NCBI GenBank assembly: GCA_044223735.1
Contig: JBGALR010000038.1
Span: 2,147-66,146, forward strand
Length of the DNA: 64,000 nucleotides
Direction: 5' to 3'
From: Limisphaerales bacterium
Lineage (GTDB): Bacteria > Verrucomicrobiota > Verrucomicrobiia > Limisphaerales > UBA8199
Position 1 is the first letter of the stretch. Every line of letters starts with the position of its first letter. A program made the position numbers and the translations under genes. Below the pieces are notes generated by a model. It was given only the letters and a program-made list of their open reading frames with translations, did not search any database and was not told the DNA's origin. This document shows positions 31,608 to 45,027 of this stretch, one piece after another.

Positions 31608-32516
31608 TTACCAGTTAACCTTCGCGGGAAAATATTCCCCGATCAACGCTTCGTAATACGGCCGCAACGCTTTCACATCCGGCTTCGCGTGATTCTTCGT
31701 GTAGAGATCGTAGCGATTGAATTTCAGCACCCACTCCATCATCTCCCGATCGTGCGCGGTGGTCAGACGGTTGTATTCCCCCTCCCGATGCCACGGATAA
31801 AACGAATGATACCGCAGCATGTAGAGTCCTTCCTCGGGCAGATAATCCTTGGCGACGTGATAAATGTATTCGTCATGACCCCAGGAAATCTGCACGGCAT
31901 CCAGGCCGCAACCCTCCTCGTAAACCCCCAATTCCGTTTGGTAACGCTGATTCCTGCTGTCTGGGTTGTCCGCAAAGAACTGCGGAAAAACAATCTTCGG
32001 CGAGAAACGGCATCCCGTCGCGAACGTATCCCCCACCACCGCCCACTGCGGTTCGCCCCACAGGCACAGCATCTTGCCGAGATCGTGAATCAATCCGGTG
32101 AGAATGAACCAGCGCGGATGACCGTCCGCGCGGATCTGCTCCGAGGTCTGCAACAAATGCTCGAGCTGCGAAAGGTCCGTATCCGGGTCGCTGTCATCCA
32201 CCAGCGTATTGAGATATTCCATTGCCTCCCACACACCCATCTTGCGGCGATTCAAGCCCAGATATTCCTTCCGCTTCGCCTGCACGAAATCGTAGGTCTG
32301 GTGGAGATGATTCTGGCGGTAAAACTCCCGCACACTCGGCCGCGCATTCGCCTCGTAATTGCGAAACTGCTCCGGCTTTTTCTCCGGATCCACCGTTTGA
32401 AAACGCGGCGTGGCCGGAGGCGCGGGCTCGGGATAGCGTTCCTTGAGAAAATCCTCCCACTCATCCATGCTCTCAAGCGGAGAGTGACTGTTCGACCGGG
32501 GTTCGGACGATTTCAT
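31608..32516 (-). CDS. myo-Inositol oxygenase (MIOX, HD-domain di-iron enzyme)
   Basis: ...HPRWFILTGLIHDLGKML..., ...WGEPQWAVVGDTFATGC..., ...ISWGHDEYIYHV..., ...YMLRYHSFYPWHREGEY... are the diagnostic MIOX motifs. Confidence 0.9.
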   Translation of the reverse strand: MKSSEPRSNSHSPLESMDEWEDFLKERYPEPAPPATPRFQTVDPEKKPEQFRNYEANARPSVREFYRQNHLHQTYDFVQAKRKEYLGLNRRKMGVWEAMEYLNTLVDDSDPDTDLSQLEHLLQTSEQIRADGHPRWFILTGLIHDLGKMLCLWGEPQWAVVGDTFATGCRFSPKIVFPQFFADNPDSRNQRYQTELGVYEEGCGLDAVQISWGHDEYIYHVAKDYLPEEGLYMLRYHSFYPWHREGEYNRLTTAHDREMMEWVLKFNRYDLYTKNHAKPDVKALRPYYEALIGEYFPAKVNW

Positions 32517-33575
32517 AGCTTATGATTTAGTGCATTTGCCGAAGCAGCGCAAGACGCTTGCGGCAGCGCGGCAACGCAAGGTCGCAGCCCACCGTATACC
32601 TGAGGAGGTCATCCGCCGACGGCATATCACCAGCTCTCCTGAAAAGCCCCGCTTCATTGTTGTTCCTGCCTCATTCGTCCAAAATCCCAAATTTTCACTT
32701 AGGGATTCTCCCATTCGACATTCGAAACTCAGCATCGCACTCCATTTCGCTTCCATTTGGTTTCCTCATTTTGCATTCGAAAATCTTCATTCTGCATTCA
32801 AAAGTTGGGTTCGTTTTTCTTTTTCTTAATGTTTAAAAACGTCGCAAGTTATTGTCAGTAAGATGGTTGCGAGATTTTAAAGTTGGGTTCGTTTGGTAAA
32901 ATTTACATTTACGCAAACTTCCATCTCACCCCGAAACCACGCTGCGCAACGGTACGCAACATGGCACACCATGCCGTAACCCTCCACGACTCGGCCCCAC
33001 CAGCCCGCAATCATTCCCATCCCCGTCACGTCCCCAACATCCCTCCATATCCAGCCGCCCCCCATCAAGCCCGACAAGCCACCGAAATCCTCCCCCACAC
33101 GTTGTAATTTCGCGTCTTTGACATGATTCTTCGGCCCTCCGCGACTCCGCTGCTCCGCGGTTCAATCCCTTCCATATTCAAATGTCAAAGATCATCGCCC
33201 CGCCCGGCCCTGTCCGCAGGCCCCGGACGGGACACACACACCAGTTTAACTCGCACGCATAATATTACAAGAACTTTCTAGGAACTTCGTAAGAAAAGCG
33301 GAATCGCCGGGGACGCGGGAATCCCGCGCCAGGAGCCGGCGGCCATCCTGGATCATGGCCCTCGAGTCACTGCGCCGGACGGAGATCAAACCAGCCAGGC
33401 ACTCGTCCGCGCGCCTGCCGGGCCGTGGCTTGCGGCCGATGAGAGGCGGCGAGGACGATAGTCATTAGCCTGCGGGCCGTGCAATTCATCTCCTCCGCCC
33501 ACTTTACTGGCAGCGAAGCGGCACCGCACCGCTTCCCCAACCAGCTTGGACGCCCCCGCGGGACATGCGGCTTGA

Positions 33576-33840
33576 TGCCCCTGAGTTAATCCCCGAATCT
33601 AAAATGCACAATTTGACCTCGGCAGGATCTGAGGTGGTAGGGCGGCCTCTCCGAGGGCGCCGCGATAGAAAAGTGTTCCTCGGCGGTCTCCGCGACCGCC
33701 CAAATAGTCTTGCCCGAAGCCGCGCCGTAATGGAAACCCGACTCGGACGGGGAATGAGAATATTTGATCGGTCCTTGAGACCGCTGAAGCATAACTTTTT
33801 CTTTCGGTCCCGCATGCGGGAGAGAGGTCGCCCTACCTCC
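33576..33840 (+). repeat. Structured repeat family, copy 1 (contains a ~208 nt rod-like hairpin 33633-33840)
   Basis: 5' arm ggtggtagggcggcctctcc (33633-33652) is the inverted complement of 3' arm gagaggtcgccctacctcc (33822-33840). Internal long-range complements are ggcggtctc/gagaccgc, gaccg/cggtc and caaata/tatttg. The 5' ~130 nt (gcccctgagttaatccccgaatctaaaatgcacaatttg...) are shared with copies 2 and 3. Confidence 0.6.
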
Positions 33841-33870
33841 TAAAAGTTCGCTAGCTGTTTTGCGGTTGCT

Positions 33871-34140
33871 GCCCCTGAGTTAATCCCCGAATCTAAAATG
33901 CACAATTTGGCCTCGGCAAGACCTGCGGTGGTAGGGCGGCCTCTCCGAGGGCGCCGCGATAGAAAAGTGATTCCCCGGCGGTCTCCGCGACCGCCCACAT
34001 ATTTTCCGGAATGCTTCGTCCCGGAATTTTGGATTCTTGTGACTAAATACGTATGGAGCATCAAGAATTATCGGAGCACGGTTGCCGGAATGGCGGAAAG
34101 CTTGCGATCATTCCATTGCCGGGCAAACATTGGAGCGGAT
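33871..34140 (+). repeat. Structured repeat family, copy 2 (alternative 3' module)
   Basis: It shares the 5' ~130 nt with copy 1. Its 3' ~150 nt (...tttccggaatgcttcgtcccggaattttgg...gccgggcaaacattggagc...) are shared with copy 3 at 42058-42340, with most positions identical by eye. Confidence 0.6.
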
Positions 34141-34420
34141 TAGAAATTGGACGGTTCAAATAGATATTAGAACCGCAGGCGCCGTGCTAGACAAAGGCTC
34201 AAATGACCAAAGCCATCAGGCCAATGTTTTAAAATTATAGGACTGAGCCTTTCACTCGCTCCCTCCTCGGACGGGGTCGAAAGCCGGCAGGCGACGACCA
34301 ACTATTTTGACCTGCTGGGGCGCATTTGGAAAACAACCCTGCCAGATAATACGAGTGTGACCAACGATTATTACACCACTGGCGTGCTCAGACTGACTCG
34401 ATGCGGCTTCACGGCTGGCG

Positions 34421-36250
34421 GTGATGTCCGACGGCACCAATTCCGCGACGTATACCTACCTTGCCAATTCGCCGCTGGTGAGCCAGATTGCCTTCAAGCA
34501 GAACGCCACCACCCGAATGACGACGACGAAGGTTTACGATTTTCTGAACCGGCTGAAATCCATCAGTTCGGTGTCGGCGGTGACGACCAACAGCTTCGTT
34601 TACTCCTACAACAACGCCAATCAACGCAGCGGCGTGACCAATGTGGATAATTCGAAGTGGGTTTATCAATATGACGACCTCGGCCAGGTTATCTCCGGCA
34701 AGAAATACTGGAGCGACGGCACTCCCGTGGCGGGCCAGCAGTTTGAGTATGCCTTCGACGACATTGGCAACCGCACCTCGACCAAGGCGGGTGGCGACCA
34801 GTCGGGCGCCAACCTGCGCTCGGCCACCTATGACGCCAATGCGCTGAACCAATACGACAGCCGCACCGTCCCCGGCGCGGTGGACATCCTCGGTTCGGCG
34901 ACCAATGCCGCCACGGTGACCGTCAATAACCAGCCGACGTACCGCAAGGGCAATTATTTCCGAGACCAGCTTGCGCTCAACAACGGGTCCGCCGCAGTGT
35001 GGGCCGGCATCACCAATGTGGCGGCGCTGAACAACGGAACCAACTCGGACATCGTGGCCACGAACCTCGGTTACGTGTTCTTGCCAAAAACCCCGGAGAG
35101 CTTCTCGTACGATGCCGATGGCAATTTGACCCAGGATGGCCGCTGGCAATACACTTGGGACGGCGAGAACCGCTTGGTAAACATGACCAGTCTCACCAAC
35201 GCTCCTACTGCTTCCAAACTCAAGTTGGACTTCGCCTACGACTACATGGGCCGCCGCGTTCAGAAAACGGTCTCGACCAACAACGGCAGCGGCTATTTTC
35301 CGCTCTACACCAACCGCTTCATCTATGACGGCTGGAATCTCCTGGCCGAACTGAATCCGTCGCACACCGTCATTCGTTCATTTGTGTGGGGAACCGATTT
35401 GAGCGGCACGATGCAAGATGCAGGCGGAGTGGGCGGACTGCTGGTAGTCTCGGATTCCGCGCTCGGATCAAGTTTCGTCGCGTTCGACGGAAATGGAAAT
35501 GTGAACGGACTGACGCGCATCACCGACGGCAGTACGGTCGCACAGTACCAGTATGGTCCCTTCGGTGAAGCCATCCGCGCCACCGGCCCCATGGCCAAGG
35601 CCAATCCCTTCCGGTTCTCGACCAAATACCAGGATGACGAGACAGACCTGCTTTACTACGGGTATCGGTATTACAACGCCAGCACGGGACGGTGGGGAAG
35701 CAGGGATCCTCTAGGTGAGTTAGGATTTGAAGCGACACGTGTCTCGGATGATGAAGAGATCATTGGTAGCCCGAATTCTTACGTCTTCATCGGCAACACG
35801 CCAACGACGCAGGTTGATTTGCTTGGCTTGCGCTCCTGCAAAGAGATCTGCAAGGCAATAATTGACGGCAGCTATCCCCCCCCTATTGCCGGGTTTGTTG
35901 GGTGTGAAGATGGAAAGAAATGTCCCTGCAATGCTAAATGGGATGCGATGGGATACAATCCTGGTGATTGTCCCGAAATTGATAAATCTGTGCTAAAGCA
36001 CGAGAAAAAGCATTTTGATGATGTCAGTTGCCCCAAGGGCTGCGGCTTGAAGATTGCCCCATGGAAAGACGATATGTCTAACGAAGATAAGGAGAAGTCC
36101 GAATGTGAGCGTGCAGAAGAAGACATAAAGACTTTGCAGAAGCTTGCTAAAAAGCTCACTGGCAATTGCCAGACTGTCGCAAAAAACCTGCTTGATTTTA
36201 AGCAGAAATATGTGAAGGACCATAACTGTGACAGCTTTAAGAAGAAATGA
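34421..36250 (+). CDS. RHS/YD-repeat protein, 5'-truncated fragment with C-terminal cysteine-rich HExxH-containing toxin-like tip
   Basis: YD repeats (YTYLANSPL..., VYQYDDLGQV..., FEYAFDDIGNRTS...) and the RHS core ending ...GYRYYNASTGRWGSRDPLGE...PNSYVFIGNTPTTQVDLLGL, the PxxxxDPxGL-type junction. The ~140 aa tip after it has 10 Cys and HEKKH. Upstream RHS-like sequence (34207-34420, ...TTNYFDLLGRIWKTTLPDNTSV...) is in a different frame, so the gene is frameshifted. There is no N-terminal RHS portion, because the upstream DNA is the repeat family. Confidence 0.8.
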   Translation: MMSDGTNSATYTYLANSPLVSQIAFKQNATTRMTTTKVYDFLNRLKSISSVSAVTTNSFVYSYNNANQRSGVTNVDNSKWVYQYDDLGQVISGKKYWSDGTPVAGQQFEYAFDDIGNRTSTKAGGDQSGANLRSATYDANALNQYDSRTVPGAVDILGSATNAATVTVNNQPTYRKGNYFRDQLALNNGSAAVWAGITNVAALNNGTNSDIVATNLGYVFLPKTPESFSYDADGNLTQDGRWQYTWDGENRLVNMTSLTNAPTASKLKLDFAYDYMGRRVQKTVSTNNGSGYFPLYTNRFIYDGWNLLAELNPSHTVIRSFVWGTDLSGTMQDAGGVGGLLVVSDSALGSSFVAFDGNGNVNGLTRITDGSTVAQYQYGPFGEAIRATGPMAKANPFRFSTKYQDDETDLLYYGYRYYNASTGRWGSRDPLGELGFEATRVSDDEEIIGSPNSYVFIGNTPTTQVDLLGLRSCKEICKAIIDGSYPPPIAGFVGCEDGKKCPCNAKWDAMGYNPGDCPEIDKSVLKHEKKHFDDVSCPKGCGLKIAPWKDDMSNEDKEKSECERAEEDIKTLQKLAKKLTGNCQTVAKNLLDFKQKYVKDHNCDSFKKK

Positions 36251-36591
36251 AAACAACCTTTTGCTCCTCTGTGGCGACGGTTTGTCTTTGTTTGTTGCCG
36301 ATCTTGTTCGGTTGCCTGTTGGGATGTTCTACGACCGTGGTCCCGCAAAAACATATTGAGCCAGCGCCGGACTTTAGCAGGTCAGCGTTGGAAAGAGCAG
36401 ATCTGGCTTTGAAGACGGCTATACGTGTTTTCGACGAAAAAGTTGGACTGGATAATTGTAAATTTAGGATCGACATGCGAAGGGTCTACGGGGCATGGAG
36501 AATAACATTTGTTTATATCCCGGAGGCGCCTGACTATTCTGGTGTGGTAATTGTGCATGATAATGGTGAGACGGAATCTTTTCTAAAATAG
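36247..36591 (+). CDS. Lipoprotein, candidate cognate immunity protein of the RHS C-terminal toxin
   Basis: The start overlaps the rhs stop by 4 nt (ATGA). Signal peptide with lipobox LLGCS. 114 aa with no recognisable enzymatic motif. This is the classic toxin/immunity gene arrangement. Confidence 0.55.
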   Translation: MKTTFCSSVATVCLCLLPILFGCLLGCSTTVVPQKHIEPAPDFSRSALERADLALKTAIRVFDEKVGLDNCKFRIDMRRVYGAWRITFVYIPEAPDYSGVVIVHDNGETESFLK

Positions 36592-36673
36592 CCGTCGCCA
36601 AGACTTGCCGGCTTTCGCTTCCCCTTAAAAGAGCTACGTCGCGAAACACGGCAAGACTTGGCTCCCCCCTGTG

Positions 36674-36982
36674 AAGGGTCGGTCCTAGAATTATGACACT
36701 TTTGCGCTGGACACGGGTTTCGAGGTCTGCCTAAGCTGGGCGCGCCATGGCCAGGCCGATTCGCATTCAGTATCCGGGCCGGTTGGGCTTGAGCGAAACG
36801 GATCTGGAGGAACTGCCGCCGGGCGCAGTGGAGAAAGTGGCTTTGGCGTGTCAGTCAGGCCGTGAGCCGGATGCAGACCAAACCATCCCGCAAGCTGAAA
36901 AAACTGCGGGATCAACTGAACCGGGGAAACGAATGACCAGGTCGAGGCAGCCAAAGTGTCATGATTCTAGGACCGACCCCTT
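36674..36982 (+). mobile_element. MITE-like internal-deletion derivative (copy A) of the IS200/RAYT-like element
   Basis: Terminal inverted repeats aagggtcggtcctagaattatgacactt ... aagtgtcatgattctaggaccgacccctt. It retains only the first 11 codons of the transposase (MARPIRIQYPG) and the 3' subterminal region. Confidence 0.7.
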
Positions 36983-37043
36983 TAAAGTCGGCCTGTCAAT
37001 AGGGGATTACAAATTCTGGCTCAAACCGGAAGGAAAAAAATAT

Positions 37044-37610
37044 GTGAAGTATGATGATCGCGTAGAATTGGAAAAGCAAATATGTATTGGTGATAAATTT
37101 AGTATTCCTAATCAGGTGCTAATCGTCGTCGGAGATCAAATTGCAGCGACTGGATCAAGAAAAATGGCAAACTACGGAGTCCAGGTTATGCAAGCGCGTG
37201 GTTTTTCTGTTGCATATTATGATTACAATATTCAACAAGTGACTGGCAATACCATTACTGATTATGTTGCAAGCGGGAATTTGTGGGGGTTCTCGTTTTT
37301 TGGACATGGCGTGGTTAACTGGAATCCGTTAGATAGGGCATCTAATGGAGGCTTCAACATTAACCATGCGGATGACATCCTCTACCCAAGTTCTATGCTC
37401 CTAAGTCGGCGGCAGTTCGGCGACGGCAAAACTATGGGGAGCTCTAAATATGGATTAGTCATTGCCTTCATGTGTAGTGCATCTTCTGCTTCTTGGAGCT
37501 CTCTCTCGTCCGGTGAAGCTTGGCAAAGCCCCTGGCTCTTTCAGCCAGCACGAAACTTCCCAATGGAGCAGGAAATCAGGGACACCTTTAAGAGAGCTAG
37601 TGCAAAATGA
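37044..37610 (+). CDS. Hypothetical protein encoded in a low-GC orphan module (possible orphan toxin/effector)
   Basis: ORF continuous with the MITE copy A. The GTG at 37044 is preceded by GGAAGGAAAAAAA. The region is AT-rich relative to the window, and I recognise no family. The stop overlaps the next ORF by 4 nt. Confidence 0.4.
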   Translation: MKYDDRVELEKQICIGDKFSIPNQVLIVVGDQIAATGSRKMANYGVQVMQARGFSVAYYDYNIQQVTGNTITDYVASGNLWGFSFFGHGVVNWNPLDRASNGGFNINHADDILYPSSMLLSRRQFGDGKTMGSSKYGLVIAFMCSASSASWSSLSSGEAWQSPWLFQPARNFPMEQEIRDTFKRASAK

Positions 37611-38014
37611 ATTTTAATTTGAAGCGATTCGGTAAGGCTGGGTGTTTGGCGGCAGCTTTATTTATCATTTTCGCCATATGGCTTTTCTTTTGGATTGTTG
37701 AGCCTCCAGGACGAGCAGAAAGCGCATATTTGAGAGCATCATTCAATGCGTGTTACCGAAGTGTAGTCGCTGTTCAAAAAAGCGAGGCGACATTGCGAGC
37801 GTTTCCTGATTGTATTACGAACTTATTCCTAAATCCCCCGGGTAAAGACCATATTGAGTTCATGCCAATTGCAGATGTTGATAAGATCACGACTAATACC
37901 ATTTTATGCCGAAGTAGAAATAGAATCAAAGGGCGCTATATGTTGCTGTTGGGATCTGGGGAAATCACGTGGATCAACGAAATCAATAAGTCAAATGTTC
38001 TAGAAGCACCCTGA
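37607..38014 (+). CDS. Hypothetical membrane protein (possible immunity partner of the preceding ORF)
   Basis: ATGA overlap with the upstream ORF, an N-terminal TM helix (CLAAALFIIFAIWLFFWIV), 135 aa, low GC. Confidence 0.45.
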   Translation: MNFNLKRFGKAGCLAAALFIIFAIWLFFWIVEPPGRAESAYLRASFNACYRSVVAVQKSEATLRAFPDCITNLFLNPPGKDHIEFMPIADVDKITTNTILCRSRNRIKGRYMLLLGSGEITWINEINKSNVLEAP

Positions 38015-38279
38015 AATTCTGACTCCTCTCCGTCGGATATTGCAAGTTGCTCCGAATTTTGTATGGGAATTGATGCCGGAATTAGTGCGGTTGCACTGCA
38101 GATGGGGTTTTGAGGGAGTGCTTTAAGCTAATTGCGATTCCCAGGCCGGTCCGGAATCAATATTTGAGTGCGGCTAATCCGTAATGGCCGGGGGAGCCGC
38201 GGGTAGAGATCTTTGTGGATATTGTCGATGGCAACCGCTTCTTTCGGGATACACGTTTTGCAATCGGATAAGGCGATTG

Positions 38280-38663
38280 AAGGGGTCGGTCCTAGAATTA
38301 TGACACTTTTGCGCTGGACACGGGTTTCGAGTTCTGTCTAAGCTGGGCGCGCCATGGCCAGGCCGATTCGCATTCAGTATCCGGGCCGGTTGGGATTGAG
38401 CGAAACGGATCTGGAGGAACTGCAGCCGGGCGCAGTGGAGAAAGTGGCTTTGGCGTGGTGGTTGAGGCGACGCACCACGGCATCGTTGCGCTGGGCCACC
38501 GGGCGCTTGCGGATGGGCCACTACAGCCGGGTCAGCCAGGCCGTGAGCCGGATGCAGAACAAACCATCCCGCAAGCTGAAAAAACTGCGGGATCAACTGA
38601 GCCGGGGAAACGAATGACTAGGTCGAGGCAGCCAAAGTGTCATAATTCTAGGACCGACCCCTT
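38280..38663 (+). mobile_element. MITE-like internal-deletion derivative (copy B) of the IS200/RAYT-like element
   Basis: Same inverted repeats as copies A and C. It retains the first 11 codons plus a longer 3' segment (ggcgtggtggttgaggcgacgcaccacgg...) that is identical to the 3' part of copy C. Confidence 0.7.
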
Positions 38664-38664
38664 T

Positions 38665-39042
38665 ATGTGCCAATCGACGGCTTTTGAAAAAGTAAAAATG
38701 AATATCTACGAGGTAATTTATTGGGGGGCAAAGCTGAAGGAAAGGGATGAAGACACTATCTTTTTGGTTCGTGCACCTGATTTCAGAAGCGCAATCGAGG
38801 AGGTGGCAAGGAATGGTTCTTCTTCCGTGATCGGTTCCGATAAAGTGGCACATGTTGTTTTTGAATTGGGAAAAGATCTTTCCGAACCTGCTGATGGCTA
38901 TTCCTCAATTTTGCGAGGTCCTTATTTTCAGTGTGCTTATAATCATGGCTGGCGCGCTTGGCATAGGCAATATGAGGGATCGACCTATACGGACCAGTGG
39001 CGTGAAGAGCCAAAGAACCCGTCGGAAAAAGATTCGCCGTAG
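38665..39042 (+). CDS. Small hypothetical cytoplasmic protein (low-GC orphan; immunity-protein-like size)
   Basis: The ATG sits directly after the right inverted repeat of MITE copy B. About 125 aa, no TM helix, AT-rich. Confidence 0.35.
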   Translation: MCQSTAFEKVKMNIYEVIYWGAKLKERDEDTIFLVRAPDFRSAIEEVARNGSSSVIGSDKVAHVVFELGKDLSEPADGYSSILRGPYFQCAYNHGWRAWHRQYEGSTYTDQWREEPKNPSEKDSP

Positions 39043-39083
39043 GCCCAAGGCGATTAAAAAGCCCGCCGTCACGCCTCGCCCCT

Positions 39084-39608
39084 TCACGGTACGCGAGTGC
39101 GCAGAAGCCAGCCCACTTCCGCGGGAGGCGCATCTTCGTTGAGTTGCGTCAGAATGCCATTGGCCCGTGATTCCTCCACGCTGGTGACTCGCACGAAATC
39201 TTCCGTGTGGCCGGGCTTTCTGGCCCAGAGTTCCATGCCCGGCCGCAACCCCTCTTTAATGCCGGCATCCAAAGAGACCGGTGTATCCCTGAAGAAATCC
39301 TTGGAGCCTTCCGTGATGGGACGCTTTGAGCTGACGCCTGTGGCGGCGATGCGCGCCTCGATTGGCTTGGGCGGAAGGTAGGCGCGAAACTCTGGCGGCA
39401 CCTCGGGCAAGCCCTCGACGAGATTTGTTTCGTCACCCCGCCGCAATAAGAAATGTCCTCGTTCCTTGTGGCGCGGCTCGCGACCTTCTCGGATCTGGTT
39501 AAAGAATTGGATCATTTCGTTCGCCGGGATCAGGTAATGCCGGGCACCCCACGAAATGGGAATCAGTTCGGCTTCGAACCCCGTGAAGGGGACGGTCCTG
39601 AATGGCAC
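39084..39608 (-). CDS. Hypothetical protein
   Basis: 174 aa ORF with ordinary composition. I recognise no motifs. Confidence 0.35.
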   Translation of the reverse strand: MPFRTVPFTGFEAELIPISWGARHYLIPANEMIQFFNQIREGREPRHKERGHFLLRRGDETNLVEGLPEVPPEFRAYLPPKPIEARIAATGVSSKRPITEGSKDFFRDTPVSLDAGIKEGLRPGMELWARKPGHTEDFVRVTSVEESRANGILTQLNEDAPPAEVGWLLRTRVP

Positions 39609-39985
39609 TTAGTTAAGGGTGCGGTAATTTCGTGGTTTGGCTTTCCAATGGCGATTTCGGTGTGGGATTTCACGAAACTGGTGACGTGGTCGGTTGAGCA
39701 AGGGGTACTGTTTTGGTCGGCGTTTGAGTGCGCGGGGTTCGCGCCGTCCCGGGCGAAGAGGCACCAGGTCACGGGCAAGGTTAAGGAGGAGATCGAGCCA
39801 GAGTTCTCGTCGGCATTTTTGGTTGGGAGCTCGATCCAGCGCGGCGCTGAATTGGCGCAATCCGTCCAGGGCTCCTTTGAAACTGAGGCGGTCGAGCTGG
39901 GCGTGGAACTGCGCCACCGACTCGGCCATGAGGCAGCGGACCAAATTGTGGGCGATCAGGTAGGCCAGCAGTTCCTTTTCCGCCA
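39609..39985 (-). pseudogene. C-terminal fragment of an IS4/IS5-superfamily DDE transposase (remnant)
   Basis: ...AEKELLAYLIAHNLVRCLMAESVAQ...RPGRREPRALKRRPKQYPLLNRPR... resembles the conserved C-terminal region of IS4-family transposases. The fragment begins exactly at the left end of element copy C. The rest of the track ORF 39609-40601 is antisense to copy C. Confidence 0.4.
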
Positions 39986-39993
39986 TGGCTGTG

Positions 39994-40625
39994 AAGGGGT
40001 CGGTCCTATAATTATGACACTTTTGCGCTGGACAGAGATTTCGATGTCCGTTTAGATTAGGGCACCATGGCCAGGCCGATTCGCATTCAGTATCCGGGGG
40101 CGGTGTATCACGTGATGGCGCGGGGCAATCACGGACAGAAAATCTTTGCCGATGACGCCGATCGCAAAACATTCCTCTCGGCGCTGGCGGAGGCGTGCGC
40201 CAAGACCCGCTGGCGCATTCACGCTTACGTCCTGATGGCCAACCACTACCACCTGCTGCTCCAGACACCCGAACCCAATCTCGTGGACGGCATGAAATGG
40301 CTGCAGGGCGTTTACACGTTGCACCACAATTCGCGGCACAAGGTCCGGGGACATCTCTTTCAGGGACGTTACAAGGCCATTCCGGTGGAAACTGCGGACG
40401 GCACCGGGGATTATTTCGGCGTGGTGGTTGAGGCGACGCACCACGGTATCGTTGCGCTGGGCCACCGGGCGGTTGCGGATGGGCCACTACAGCCGGGTCA
40501 GCCAGGCCGTGAGCCGGATGCAGACCAAACCATCCCGCAAGCTGAAAAAACTGCGGGATCAACTGAACCGGGGAAACGAATGACCAGGTCGAGGCAGCCA
40601 AAGTGTCATAATTCTAGGACCCCTT
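39994..40625 (+). mobile_element. IS200/IS605-superfamily (RAYT-like) element, copy C, with ~29 bp terminal inverted repeats
   Basis: Inverted repeats aaggggtcggtcctataattatgacactt ... aagtgtcataattctaggac(cgac deleted)ccctt. It carries the longest tnpA remnant. Confidence 0.75.
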
Positions 40626-40666
40626 TACAATTAACGGCACCTCGCCTTGCGCCTTGCGATATTTGA
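40067..40666 (+). CDS. tnpA: Y1 HuH (IS200/RAYT-type) tyrosine transposase, N-terminal catalytic half only
   Basis: MARPIRIQYPGAVYHVMARGNHGQKIFADDADRKTFLSALAEACAKTRWRIHAYVLMANHYHLLLQTPE...GHLFQGRYKAI has the HuH motif HYHLLL and the GRYKA Tyr motif. After about residue 110 the ORF runs into the 3' subterminal repeat, and its stop lies outside the element. It is therefore probably non-functional. Confidence 0.7.
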   Translation: MARPIRIQYPGAVYHVMARGNHGQKIFADDADRKTFLSALAEACAKTRWRIHAYVLMANHYHLLLQTPEPNLVDGMKWLQGVYTLHHNSRHKVRGHLFQGRYKAIPVETADGTGDYFGVVVEATHHGIVALGHRAVADGPLQPGQPGREPDADQTIPQAEKTAGSTEPGKRMTRSRQPKCHNSRTPLQLTAPRLAPCDI

Positions 40667-40705
40667 AGTCCTGAAATTCCTGGTCGCGTGAATTGTCCTG
40701 ATGCC

Positions 40706-41902
40706 TTAAAAAAGATGCGTTATGCGCATTGCAAAGATGGCAAACAACAATCCGACCAGCCCCGAAAACATCGTCCCATTCCACGCCATGGTAGCCGCTG
40801 CCGCCGGCCGGGGGAAATCGGGCGTCACGCCAGCCGCCAAAATCCGGTCATAAAGATGCGGATGGGTCGTCCGGTTCTTCGCGGTGACGGCCGGCAGGAG
40901 GTTATCTGCATAGAGCCGGGTCAGGGCGCGGGCATAAGTTCCCGCATCACCCTGATGGTCTGTGGCCATCAGGTCCGCCCGTGATTCCAGCTTCCGGCTG
41001 ATGCTTCGGTAAATGCGGGGAACGCCGAGAGTGACTAGGAGCAACCCGTAAAAGGCAAAAAGGCCAAAGGCGTGCAGCAACGGATTGAAGAACATCCACG
41101 GTAGAAATGACATCATTTGGATGGAGCGTGAATATCGGGATGTCCTTGATTCGGTGAGGTGCGCCAATTCATGAGCGCAGACACTGGCAATTTCATCATC
41201 GGAGAGCAATTCGAGCAACCGTTCCGTGAATAACAGCTGGCGTGTGTGCGGAAGCGCGGCGGCTTGGGCCATGGGGGAACGCATCAATACGACTTCACGA
41301 AACGGAACTTTCATTCTGGTGGAAGTATCGCGGGCAATTTTCTCCAATCGCTCGGTGGCCGGTTGGAACCAGCCGAGCATTTTGCCAAACCAAATCAGAC
41401 CGCCACGCACCCAAATCACCCATAAAACAACCACCGTCCCGCCAATTCCCAGCGCCATTGGATTGAACTCGTCCGGCATGAATACCGCCGCGCCGAGGAA
41501 TACGAACCAGATCAGAAACCGCAACAGGATGCCAATGCCCACTGAACGCAGCAGTTCACGCATCGGAATGCGTGGGAAAAGCTCGTGATCGAAGGGCAAC
41601 GTTCCGGCGTGGGCGCCTAAAACTGAAACCATGCCAGTGAACAACCAAAGCGGTGACGAATCCGGCCATAACAGCAACACAGCCAGCGTGAGAACGCCCG
41701 GAACCGTCAGGAGATTGGACCGCGCCGCGACGCTGACCGGATACACCAACCGCGCCTGTTCAGACCAATGCGTGTCCTGGCTGCGTCGCCAGGGAATTAA
41801 CGCCAGCCAATTCGTAATAAAGGTCAAGCCCGCTGCCAGCAAGCCCGCGCCGATGATGATCATCCCATTCAAGCTTGGTGGAGTAAAACAACCGGCAGGC
41901 AA
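40706..41902 (-). CDS. M48-family (HtpX/Ste24-like) integral membrane zinc metallopeptidase
   Basis: Multiple TM helices, HExxH motif (CAHELAHL), and a downstream Glu-rich segment, as in peptidase M48/M56. Confidence 0.75.
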   Translation of the reverse strand: MPAGCFTPPSLNGMIIIGAGLLAAGLTFITNWLALIPWRRSQDTHWSEQARLVYPVSVAARSNLLTVPGVLTLAVLLLWPDSSPLWLFTGMVSVLGAHAGTLPFDHELFPRIPMRELLRSVGIGILLRFLIWFVFLGAAVFMPDEFNPMALGIGGTVVVLWVIWVRGGLIWFGKMLGWFQPATERLEKIARDTSTRMKVPFREVVLMRSPMAQAAALPHTRQLLFTERLLELLSDDEIASVCAHELAHLTESRTSRYSRSIQMMSFLPWMFFNPLLHAFGLFAFYGLLLVTLGVPRIYRSISRKLESRADLMATDHQGDAGTYARALTRLYADNLLPAVTAKNRTTHPHLYDRILAAGVTPDFPRPAAAATMAWNGTMFSGLVGLLFAIFAMRITHLF

Positions 41903-41989: not shown

Positions 41990-42340
41990 TGATAATTCGC
42001 ATGCGGGAAAGAGGCCGCCCTACCACCTCGAAGTTCCCTTACGATCTCGCGACCCGATGCCCCTAATTTAATGCCGAAATCGAGGGCTCACAATTTGACC
42101 AGGAAATGACTGCGGTGGTAGGGCGAGCTCTCCGAGCGCGCCGCGATAGAAAAGTGTTCCCCGGCGGTCTCCGCGACCGCCCAAATATTTCCGTGAAACG
42201 CTTCGTCCCGGAAATTTGGATGCTTGTGACTAAATGCCTGTGGAGCATCAGGAATAATCGGAACGCGGCCACCGGAATGGGGGCAAGCTTGCAATCATTC
42301 CATGGCCGGGCAAACATTGGAGCAGGTTAGAAACGGGACG
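41990..42340 (+). repeat. Structured repeat family, copy 3, preceded by a ~40 nt remnant of the copy-1 3' arm
   Basis: 41990-42029 (cgcatgcgggaaagaggccgccctaccacctcgaagttc) matches the 3' end of copy 1. 42058-42340 matches copy 2 over its full length. It is in direct orientation relative to copy 2 and brackets the 34.1-42.0 kb island. Confidence 0.6.
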
Positions 42341-42347
42341 GCTAAAA

Positions 42348-43562
42348 TCATTTTGCCGTTTTTTTGATGGCTCCGGCCTCCTTTAGCAATTTCAATGTCG
42401 GACCCAATGGCAATGCTTCCACCGTACCCTGAAAACCTCGCACGGTTTCAGCGCGAAACATGGAGTCATAAATCGCCTCTTCCGTAGCGTCGGCCACCGC
42501 CTTGAACAGCGGCGACATCCGGGCATTTGAGATCTCCTTGAAATTGTGAATTTCCGCATCGAATTGCCTTCGGCACCCGGCGGCGGTGGAAAAAGCGATA
42601 GCGTAGTCGCCCGACCCGTTGGACATGCTTGAACCCGTCCGCGCCAATCCAACCATCGCGCGCGATGCAAGCCGTTCGAGGTTGCGGGAACTTAGCGGAG
42701 CATCAGTCGCCACCACGATCATAATGCTGCCGTTGCCGGAATTGTTTCCTGGTTCGCGCCGCAACAATTCACGCTCCACATGAACCCCATCAATGGATAG
42801 TTCTCCGCCAAAATTACTCTGCACCAGCACGCCAACAGCATAGCCCCCGGATTCTTTCGGCAGCAGGCGCGAACTGGTGCCAATGCCGCCTTTCCAACCA
42901 AAGGCGACCGTTCCAGCGCCCGCACCGACGCAGCCCTCTTCCACCACACCGTTGGTCGCGTTTTCCAAGGCGTTAAAGACGTCCTCTGCGCGAATGGGCC
43001 GGGCGCGAATGTCATTTAGCAGGCCGTCGTTCGTTTCGCCGACCAACGGGTTGATGGAACGCACGTCCGCCATGCCCGGTTGCGCGAGCAGCCACGAGAC
43101 CATCGCGTCGGCAACTTTCCAGACACTCAACGTCCCCGTCAGCACAATAGGCGTTTCCAGTTCACCCATTTCCCTGACCTGGGTGATGCCCAGTAATTTA
43201 CCATATCCGTTGCCGACAAAAATTGCGGCGGGCACACGCTCCTTAAACACGTTTCCGCCGTGCGGAAAAATTGTCGTGACCCCAGTATGAAATCGTTCAC
43301 CGTCAATGACACTCACCTGGCCGACGCGCACGCCGGCCACGTCCGTGATCGCGTTTAACGGGCCAGTCGGCAACGTGCCAATTACAATTCCAGCTTCGCG
43401 CGCACGTGGCCGCGGTTCAGGCAGTGCTCCATTCGTAGGCAGGGAAACTCCGAGGACCGTGACGAAAGCGCAGACAAGTTGAAAGCGGAGCGCGACGCAT
43501 TTTTTCATAAAACTTGGTTGCGTCCCAACCGCGGGCGCGCGATTGACGACGGGGAGGCTCAC
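42348..43562 (-). CDS. DmpA/OAT-family (peptidase S58) L-aminopeptidase / D-Ala-esterase-amidase
   Basis: Signal peptide, ...GIVIGTLPTGPLNAITDVAGVRVGQVSVIDGERFHTGVTTIF..., ...GAGAGTVAFGWKGGIGTSSR..., the P1/DmpA self-processing family pattern. Confidence 0.75.
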   Translation of the reverse strand: MSLPVVNRAPAVGTQPSFMKKCVALRFQLVCAFVTVLGVSLPTNGALPEPRPRAREAGIVIGTLPTGPLNAITDVAGVRVGQVSVIDGERFHTGVTTIFPHGGNVFKERVPAAIFVGNGYGKLLGITQVREMGELETPIVLTGTLSVWKVADAMVSWLLAQPGMADVRSINPLVGETNDGLLNDIRARPIRAEDVFNALENATNGVVEEGCVGAGAGTVAFGWKGGIGTSSRLLPKESGGYAVGVLVQSNFGGELSIDGVHVERELLRREPGNNSGNGSIMIVVATDAPLSSRNLERLASRAMVGLARTGSSMSNGSGDYAIAFSTAAGCRRQFDAEIHNFKEISNARMSPLFKAVADATEEAIYDSMFRAETVRGFQGTVEALPLGPTLKLLKEAGAIKKTAK

Positions 43563-44561: not shown

Positions 44562-44840
44562 GAGCCTGGGTTATGCTGATTTCGGAAATTCGCGCTCACC
44601 CCTCACGCCTTGGATGGCTAAAATCAGAAGTCCGACCGCTAAATATATTTCGGAGTCGTGCACATCAAGAATTTGTCGCCCGGGCAATTATTAAAGAGTT
44701 CGTTTGTATCTGGACATCAAAAATCGCAAATCCGCTTGGAAATCAAAGTTTTTTAAAGCGAGATGCCATATTGACGCAGCCCCTTAAAAACCAGCGTGTC
44801 CGCCGTAATCTGTCGGCTATCCGTTAACACTACGGAGCCT

Positions 44841-45027
44841 AAGGGCCTGGAGTTATGACGCTTTTATGCCGGACAATGTCTTCGAGTTGCGTTTGAGTTG
44901 GGGCGGTTTATCACGAGCAGGCGCGTGGAACCGCGGGCAGAAATCTTTGTCCATGATGGCGATCACAAAAGGTTCGCCAGGCATTACCGCCTCGCGCGGC
45001 TGAAGTCGCAAACGGCTGTCACCCCTT
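44841..45027 (+). mobile_element. Degraded relic of a fourth, more divergent IS200/RAYT-like element copy
   Basis: aagggcctgg-agttatgacgcttttatgccggacaatgtcttcgagttgcg... aligns with the left end of copy C. ...gtttatcacgagcaggcgcgtggaaccgcgggcagaaatctttg... aligns with the AVYHVMARGNHGQKIF coding region but contains a stop. The right end is ...aagtcgcaaacggctgtcacccctt. Confidence 0.4.

Follow-up and report, generated by a model that had tools for sequence, protein, structure and literature searches.

Orphan toxin/immunity modules are reportedly found downstream of rhs genes in Enterobacteriaceae, as Poole et al. in 2011 and Koskiniemi et al. in 2014 are said to have described. Here we analyse a locus of this type in a Limisphaerales bacterium (contig JBGALR010000038.1 of assembly GCA_044223735.1), using a window of 64,000 nucleotides, the whole stretch of DNA analysed, to which all coordinates refer. 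Its first cassette is an open reading frame (ORF) of 609 amino acids at 34421-36250 (+ strand, start codon GTG), which carries the end of an Rhs core and a cysteine-rich C-terminal tip with an HExxH motif, and is followed directly by a lipoprotein gene (Table 1). The locus represents an orphan rhs cassette array, a phenomenon already known, in a genome of Verrucomicrobiota type. Like the enterobacterial modules, it combines a core fragment, a variable tip of low G + C content and a tightly linked immunity gene, and it has several cassettes in a row, including truncated tips and immunity-only remnants. It differs from them in that no full-length rhs gene is present in the 64-kb window, in that miniature elements derived from transposases lie between the cassettes, and in that full-length Rhs proteins of Verrucomicrobiota begin with a signal-peptide-like sequence and not with type VI secretion system adaptors. 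Since orphan rhs cassettes are well known, the architecture itself adds little, and the value of the locus lies in an unnamed pair of toxin and immunity families.

Among described systems, the closest functional analogue of this pair appears to be the C-terminal metallopeptidase domain of VgrG2b with its partner PA0261 (Tpe/Tpi), in which toxicity depends on HExxH and is seen in the periplasm only (PMC6899460). The immunity protein of that system is periplasmic, is a lipoprotein in some species, and works by binding (PMC6899460). The likeness lies in the mechanism proposed for the window pair, namely an HExxH effector with envelope immunity by binding. In contrast, no relationship in sequence or fold was detected; with about 135 amino acids, the window tip has ten conserved cysteines and no solved structural neighbour, and its family is carried by Rhs, Sec or extracellular contractile injection system (eCIS) proteins and not by VgrG. 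Other HExxH families of polymorphic toxins are Tox-MPTase1-5, Tox-HopH1 and PVC-metallopeptidase (DUF4157) (Zhang et al. 2012, PMC3482391). They resemble the window tip as small HExxH domains at the C-terminus of Rhs-type polymorphic toxins, but their Pfam models match none of 62 members of the tip family (E<=1). The Lipocone toxins, such as Min-Wnt, CapCone and TelC, have lipoprotein or transmembrane immunity proteins (PMC12419801). They share with the window system helical secreted tips on polymorphic toxins and an envelope-located immunity, and one described class of Lipocone immunity protein consists of a helix and four strands (PMC12419801). For the fold of the immunity protein, the closest known systems include the PepSY/FTP propeptide domains of M4 and M36 metalloproteases and the cystatin-fold inhibitors. 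No HExxH or cysteine-rich domain is mentioned among the validated toxins of a systematic screen of polymorphic toxins (bioRxiv 10.1101/2021.10.19.465003).

The toxin tip and its partner lipoprotein

The tip begins where the Rhs core ends. The RHS repeat-associated core domain TIGR03696 is matched over its full model length by residues 378-470 (E 8e-17), and this match stops exactly at the VDLLGL junction, with L470 at nucleotides 35828-35830. The G + C content is 0.45 in the tip vs 0.57 in the Rhs core. An initial annotation of the window had described a tip with ten cysteines and the motif HEKKH; the motif is present at residues 527-531, but the 145 residues counted from V465 contain 11 cysteines. 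Searches with the tip alone gave no match beyond chance in Pfam, NCBIfam or PDB sequences, 61-62 family members compared with Pfam and NCBIfam gave chance matches only, and a family-profile search of PDB sequences found nothing. These results agree with the earlier remark that the tip was not recognised as a described Ntox/Tox family.

The tip had also been called novel, and it does appear to be undescribed in the libraries searched, but it is not unique. Word-indexed searches recovered few relatives (2 and 7), and one over 5.8 billion proteins returned two, both partial. When 1.84 billion cluster representatives were searched exhaustively with HMMER, 95 relatives were recovered at E<=1e-3 (20 of them at E<=1e-10), which puts the family at no fewer than 95 clusters at 50% identity. 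A metagenome scan based on close relatives yielded two loci. Their source annotations read only ‘hypothetical protein’ or ‘RHS repeat-associated protein’. By homology, the tip can be placed in an unnamed family of polymorphic-toxin domains of about 135 amino acids.

With V465 numbered as position 1, ten cysteines are invariant or at least 90% conserved in 61 aligned members (C9, C13, C31, C37, C39, C53, C73, C98, C119 and C139). H67 is present in all 61 sequences, H63, E64 and E97 are each present in 60, and the full H-E-x-x-H motif is kept in 59. Conservation of these residues and of the ten cysteines across the family argues that the motifs in the window tip are not there by chance. C37 is missing in three sequences, in two of which C9 is lost along with it, and this joint loss fits a disulfide between a CxxxC in a helix and a CxC in a strand. 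A comparison with a homologous tip in a 29.8-kb contig from the Joint Genome Institute (JGI; locus L002, 82% identical) indicates purifying selection, with a proportion of nonsynonymous differences (pN) of 0.10 vs 0.78 for synonymous differences (pS).

The domain is C-terminal in nearly all family proteins, with at most 11 residues after it except in three proteins with 18-24. A Pfam scan of 85 members identified RHS repeats in five, the RHS protein family in two, and DUF4157, an eCIS core domain, in eight. The tip is carried by a full-length Rhs protein of 1,951 amino acids (P0090) and by many Rhs fragments, and one member (L074) belongs to an eCIS locus that includes a gp25 baseplate gene. 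Another carrier type, which we call ‘mini-Rhs’, accounts for 13 of 96 family proteins: here the signal peptide runs straight into FYNPxTGRWLSRDP, the final stretch of the Rhs core, after which comes the tip. The occurrence of the same C-terminal domain on Rhs, Sec mini-Rhs and eCIS-core scaffolds is the pattern of a polymorphic toxin. Examples of mini-Rhs proteins are P0010, P0015, P0016, P0027, P0028, P0038, P0054, P0069, P0078, P0084, P0100 and the protein at 1144-1716 of L076; between the Sec signal peptide and the core motif (FYNPxTGRWLSRDP...GL) they have no YD-repeat shell at all. L076 also has a second mini-Rhs in tandem after the first, with a different cysteine-rich tip.

The lipoprotein gene follows the tip as the initial annotation had it, with an ATGA overlap in which its start codon (ATG, 36247-36249) lies over the rhs stop codon (TGA, 36248-36250). 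Two lipobox-like motifs are found in its 114-amino acid product, LFGC at residues 20-23 and LLGC at residues 24-27, and the protein was counted as a lipoprotein under the pattern [LVI][ASTVI][GAS]C, judged by motif only. On the same basis there are lipoboxes in the homologues from L001, L002, L072, L075 and L076, so that six of seven distinct immunity homologues have one. The mature domain is modelled as one helix and four strands in a cystatin/PepSY-like arrangement, with no PepSY match for the protein in Pfam. The resemblance offers weak evidence compatible with an immunity protein of the protease-inhibitor type.

Several loci point to a lasting association between the two genes. The same ATGA-coupled pair lies behind an independently truncated Rhs fragment of 457 amino acids in L002, and it occurs again in L003, a population variant with 96% nucleotide identity to the window. 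In L001 the pair is reduced to the immunity gene and the C-terminal half of the tip. In further population variants on short contigs (L004 and L006-L008), the immunity gene is accompanied by just the last ∼55 nucleotides of the toxin gene, with upstream sequence that is different or absent; in L004 it is 96% identical to the window and stands behind a different cassette. The homology around the immunity gene in L004-L008 spans 36195 to 36667 and always ends at 36667, just before the first miniature element. At a greater distance, the tip of L076 is 47% identical to the window tip and has a homologous lipoprotein 3 nucleotides downstream.

All loci retrieved, with 14,234 ORFs between them, were screened with a hidden Markov model (HMM) of the lipoprotein. 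Beyond the lipoprotein orthologues, which include the stand-alone copies in L004-L008, every match at E<0.05 was the ORF directly downstream of a tip-family gene. The matches comprise the L076 lipoprotein (E 2e-35), a protein of 67 amino acids with no signal peptide in the eCIS context of L074 (E 5e-5; JGI 3300080036, effector and immunity gene at 1097-2063), a protein with two repeats and a lipobox in L075 (E 0.02), and an uncalled lipobox ORF of 109 amino acids that overlaps the toxin stop codon in L072 (E 0.05). Homologous small genes therefore follow the tip in L001, L002, L003, L072, L074, L075 and L076, as would be expected of a cognate immunity gene. The lipoprotein is under purifying selection, with an omega of ∼0.1 in comparisons with L001 and L003; in the comparison with L002 (pN 0.30, pS 0.81) synonymous sites are saturated. 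The earlier proposal that the lipoprotein is an immunity factor gains from the recurrence of the coupled pair in metagenomic loci and from the relatives that follow distant tip homologues, and on this comparative evidence it is likely to be the immunity factor of the tip. Rhs and Sec versions of the tip pair with lipoprotein immunity, and the eCIS version in L074 with a signal-less protein. With this single example, the location of immunity may track the delivery route.

Truncation of the rhs gene

Matches to RHS repeats in the 609-amino acid ORF (PF05593, E 2.5e-10; TIGR01643 also) come from Pfam and NCBIfam. A scan of one genome per species for relatives of its core gave 63 loci, nearly all in metagenome-assembled genomes of Verrucomicrobiota (Limisphaerales, Pedosphaera, ‘subdivision 3’), with the closest core match 66% identical. 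In these relatives the homologous segment forms the end of proteins of 1,866-2,327 amino acids, and many shorter fragments with differing 5' ends are also found. The core fragment in the window corresponds to about the last 470 core residues of Rhs proteins of ∼2,000 amino acids. When four full-length relatives (1,951-2,167 amino acids) were compared with the whole window by tblastn, they aligned at 34397-36241 only (for example, residues 1465-1982 of a 2,038-amino acid protein), and no other rhs sequence or full-length rhs gene was found in the 64 kb. This upholds the earlier observation that the gene is 5'-truncated with no N-terminal RHS portion. By alignment, the ORF has lost ∼1,460 N-terminal residues, comprising the export signal and some three quarters of the shell. 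The N-terminus of full-length Verrucomicrobiota relatives is hydrophobic and signal-peptide-like, as judged by eye; the window ORF has no signal peptide and no N-terminal domain or shell, and lacks a complete shell-forming repeat region and an export/plug region. Because the homology reaches the TGA at 34394-34396, the called GTG start is incidental.

The initial annotation had described the gene as frameshifted because of an RHS-like segment upstream and out of frame. That piece is real but weak: comparison with the four full-length proteins gave BLAST matches of a YD-repeat-like kind only (E 3e-4 to 0.02), and Pfam had no match for it (∼34240-34396). It maps to about residues 1090-1270 of the full-length relatives, ∼190-370 residues upstream of the point at which the main ORF joins them. 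As its matches lie that much further upstream, the piece is best explained as a remnant of an internal deletion together with 5' truncation, and not of a one-base frameshift.

As encoded, the first cassette would be unable to build or export an Rhs cocoon, because the N-terminal residues that supply the signal peptide and most of the shell are lost. Most likely the cassette still has two roles, through the immunity gene that is retained and through the tip, kept in reserve for possible recombination onto a full-length rhs gene elsewhere. A scan for promoters and terminators gave no promoter-like signal above chance level, and an Rfam search of 32400-41000 returned nothing credible. Opposite the rhs core there is an antisense ORF of 318 amino acids (34409-35365, − strand), which is most likely an artefact of GC-rich repetitive coding sequence.

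Rhs fragments truncated at the 5' end are common across Verrucomicrobiota genomes (L011, L022, L024, L034, L020, L002 and other genome and metagenome loci), and several break near one core position (...SDGTNSATYxYLANSPLV...). The shared position hints at a preferred point of recombination or truncation. The data record the decay of Verrucomicrobiota rhs loci by truncation and by insertion of miniature elements.

Predicted fold and mode of action

An AlphaFold2 model of the tip, built on the 61-sequence alignment, has a mean predicted local distance difference test score (pLDDT) of 95.4 and a predicted template modelling score (pTM) of 0.87. The order of elements is a helix (9-19), a hairpin (27-32 and 35-40), a helix with HExxH at its end (54-65) and a short strand (79-81), followed by two long helices, 90-114, which bears E97, and 117-136. 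Five predicted disulfides would brace this helix, β-hairpin and helix scaffold, and the nearly invariant H-E-x-x-H on one helix would face the nearly invariant glutamate on the next long helix. That glutamate follows the HExxH by ∼30 residues, which is the spacing of gluzincins. The metalloenzyme reading comes from the conserved H-E-x-x-H...E pattern and this gluzincin-like spacing, and not from membership of the zincin clan: the model has no solved structural neighbour and no fold similarity to solved zincins. For the zincin-like peptidase suggested earlier, the motif and a candidate ligand glutamate downstream are nearly invariant, but no zincin fold or profile was matched.

We consider it likely that the window holds an orphan array whose first cassette consists of ∼470 core residues, a complete tip and an immunity gene, with the tip acting as a metal-dependent hydrolase on the envelope of a competitor and the lipoprotein neutralising it. 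The tip itself is probably a disulfide-stabilised metal-dependent hydrolase that acts in the cell envelope. Its HExxH...E site would be that of a metal hydrolase, probably using zinc, with a peptidase as the leading guess. In this proposal the tip would act outside the cytoplasm, and the co-translated lipoprotein, with its predicted cystatin/PepSY-like fold, would bind it in the producer's own periplasm and so neutralise it. An envelope-acting, disulfide-stabilised effector is plausible because the family includes carriers with Sec signals, has ten conserved cysteines and is paired with lipoprotein immunity. The initial annotation had specified a periplasm-acting effector; action in the envelope is plausible, but given the signal-less immunity gene of the eCIS locus the target may not be strictly periplasmic. 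Overall, its observation is confirmed and its interpretation is partly supported.

Three findings weigh against the proposal. An hhalign comparison of the tip with the DUF4157 zincin gave a probability of 2% and aligned the HExxH motif alone, DSSP places H67 just beyond the end of its helix in the tip model, and the eCIS-linked homologue in L074, with no signal peptide, fits neutralisation in the cytoplasm. Kinship with the DUF4157 zincin was rejected on that comparison. Membership of the Lipocone group was also rejected, as the pattern of a histidine in H2 and an aspartate in H4 with a downstream asparagine is absent.

The failed comparison with a zincin is also relevant to the nature of the site. 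The HExxH...E cluster could be a structural or non-proteolytic metal site, with the tip killing by other means, such as attack on lipid-linked cell-wall precursors or binding and perforation of membranes. The weak structural neighbours of the tip are helical metal-binding bundles (CnrX, DUF305, Dps/ferritin-like proteins and CopM), and a lipid-directed action is described for other toxins that act on the envelope and have lipoprotein immunity (PMC12419801). However, the general-base glutamate of zincins is retained within the conserved motif, the second glutamate is equally conserved at gluzincin spacing on the next helix, the active-site pattern of the lipid-directed Lipocone toxins is absent, and the predicted immunity fold bears a weak resemblance to the propeptide inhibitors of metalloproteases. 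On balance, a non-peptidase site of this kind seems somewhat unlikely.

The eCIS connection raises a different question, which is where the tip acts. If its target were in the cytoplasm of the attacked cell, the lipoprotein would merely shield the producer while the toxin passes through its own periplasm. The eight scanned members with DUF4157, the one in an eCIS locus and the signal-less immunity homologue there are all in line with this, but the alternative is unlikely in view of the 13 members that are plain Sec-signal proteins, the lipobox in nearly all immunity homologues, and the ten conserved cysteines with their CxxxC helix and CxC strand, an arrangement we take as typical of disulfide-braced secreted domains. 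A further alternative is that the 609-amino acid ORF is itself a working short Rhs toxin, expressed from an internal GTG or ATG at 34421-34426 and released by lysis or by some other route. In its favour, no stop codon interrupts the frame of 617 codons, selection on both tip and immunity gene is purifying, and comparably short rhs ORFs recur in related genomes. This is nevertheless very unlikely, as the protein has neither a signal peptide nor an N-terminal domain and retains no more than about one quarter of the shell-forming repeats, the 5' ends of the recurring short forms are unrelated, as expected of random truncations, and no promoter-like signal rises above chance.

Within the preferred reading, that of an envelope-acting metal-dependent hydrolase neutralised by the lipoprotein, a bolder version is possible, if doubtful. 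The tip could found a new class of fold, in which small HExxH metalloenzyme toxins with five disulfides, unrelated to zincins, have their own cystatin/PepSY-like immunity family. Such a class would be common to the Rhs cocoon, Sec (with a vestigial Rhs core motif) and eCIS routes, and the form of the immunity protein, lipoprotein or cytoplasmic, would change according to route. The toxin domain is compact and confidently modelled, has a metalloenzyme signature, and has no curated model or solved structural neighbour, and the immunity domain appears to co-evolve with it. If active, the pair would add scaffolds of two new kinds, an antibacterial enzyme and an inhibitor, and would allow the adaptation of a single toxin to delivery by Sec, Rhs and eCIS to be tested cleanly.

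The cassette array and its repeats

Downstream of the first cassette, the array continues with further cassettes and three miniature elements (Table 1). The miniature elements lie between toxin cassettes, and each of the three has terminal inverted repeats of ∼33 nucleotides (GGGGTCGGTCCTAGAATTATGACACTTTTGC...). They contain graded remnants of a Y1/IS200-like transposase gene (MARPIRIQYPG...), in the form of nested deletion derivatives, and a diverged repeat arm is found at 44833-44895. In another locus (L031), an Rhs fragment is interrupted by a similar transposase remnant, MPRQLRIEYPGAIYCV.

Table 1. Coordinates of the features described in the window.
Feature	Position	Strand	Details
R2 dispersed repeat, ∼300 nucleotides	33866..34161		∼80 nucleotides upstream of the start of RHS-like sequence
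Out-of-frame remnant, weakly RHS/YD-repeat-like	∼34240..34396	+	closed by TGA 34394-34396; sequence TTNYFDLLGRIWKTTLPDNTSVTNDYYTTG
Rhs core fragment	34397..35830	+	called start GTG 34421; Rhs_assc_core 35552-35830, ending VDLLGL
Toxin tip, residues 471-609 (139 amino acids)	35831..36250	+	HEKKH 35999-36013; Glu561 36101-36103; 11 Cys
Predicted immunity lipoprotein, 114 amino acids	36247..36591	+	ATGA overlap with rhs stop
Miniature element 1	36671..36985		∼33-nucleotide terminal inverted repeats and remnant of a Y1 (IS200-like) transposase gene
Second orphan tip, 5'-truncated	36981..37610	+	conserved FFGHG and C-S-A motifs
Membrane protein, 135 amino acids	37607..38014	+	ATGA-coupled to second tip
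Miniature element 2	38278..38663		second copy of the inverted-repeat element
Small ORF after element 2	38665..39042	+	possible third cassette
Miniature element 3, longest	39992..40621		truncated Y1_Tnp domain (PF01797, E 3e-12)

The small ORF that follows the second miniature element has no homologue in the loci retrieved. The second orphan tip has no match in Pfam. It shares 33% identity (E 7.5e-23) with the C-terminal tip of an Rhs fragment from L052 and begins ∼30 residues into that tip. Its FFGHG and C-S-A motifs could possibly form a His/Cys dyad, and the membrane protein coupled to it is a probable second immunity gene. The L052 sequence (2-1159) comes from a metagenome-assembled genome labelled Hydrogenedentes.

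The R2 repeat recurs in part at 33572-33716 and as a direct copy at 42053-42348, and its copies, of about 145-300 nucleotides, have a conserved GC-rich hairpin, GGCGGTCTCCGCGACCGCC. A structured RNA was considered for the upstream repeat and rejected, with z-scores of 0 to -1.15 and no significant overall structure. Two direct R2 copies bracket a segment of 8.2 kb that contains the entire cassette array and an M48 peptidase gene. The G + C content of the cassettes is 0.43-0.46 vs 0.56-0.59 in the flanks, where the genes are of a housekeeping type (myo-inositol oxygenase, a sugar-binding protein, and M48 and S58 peptidases).

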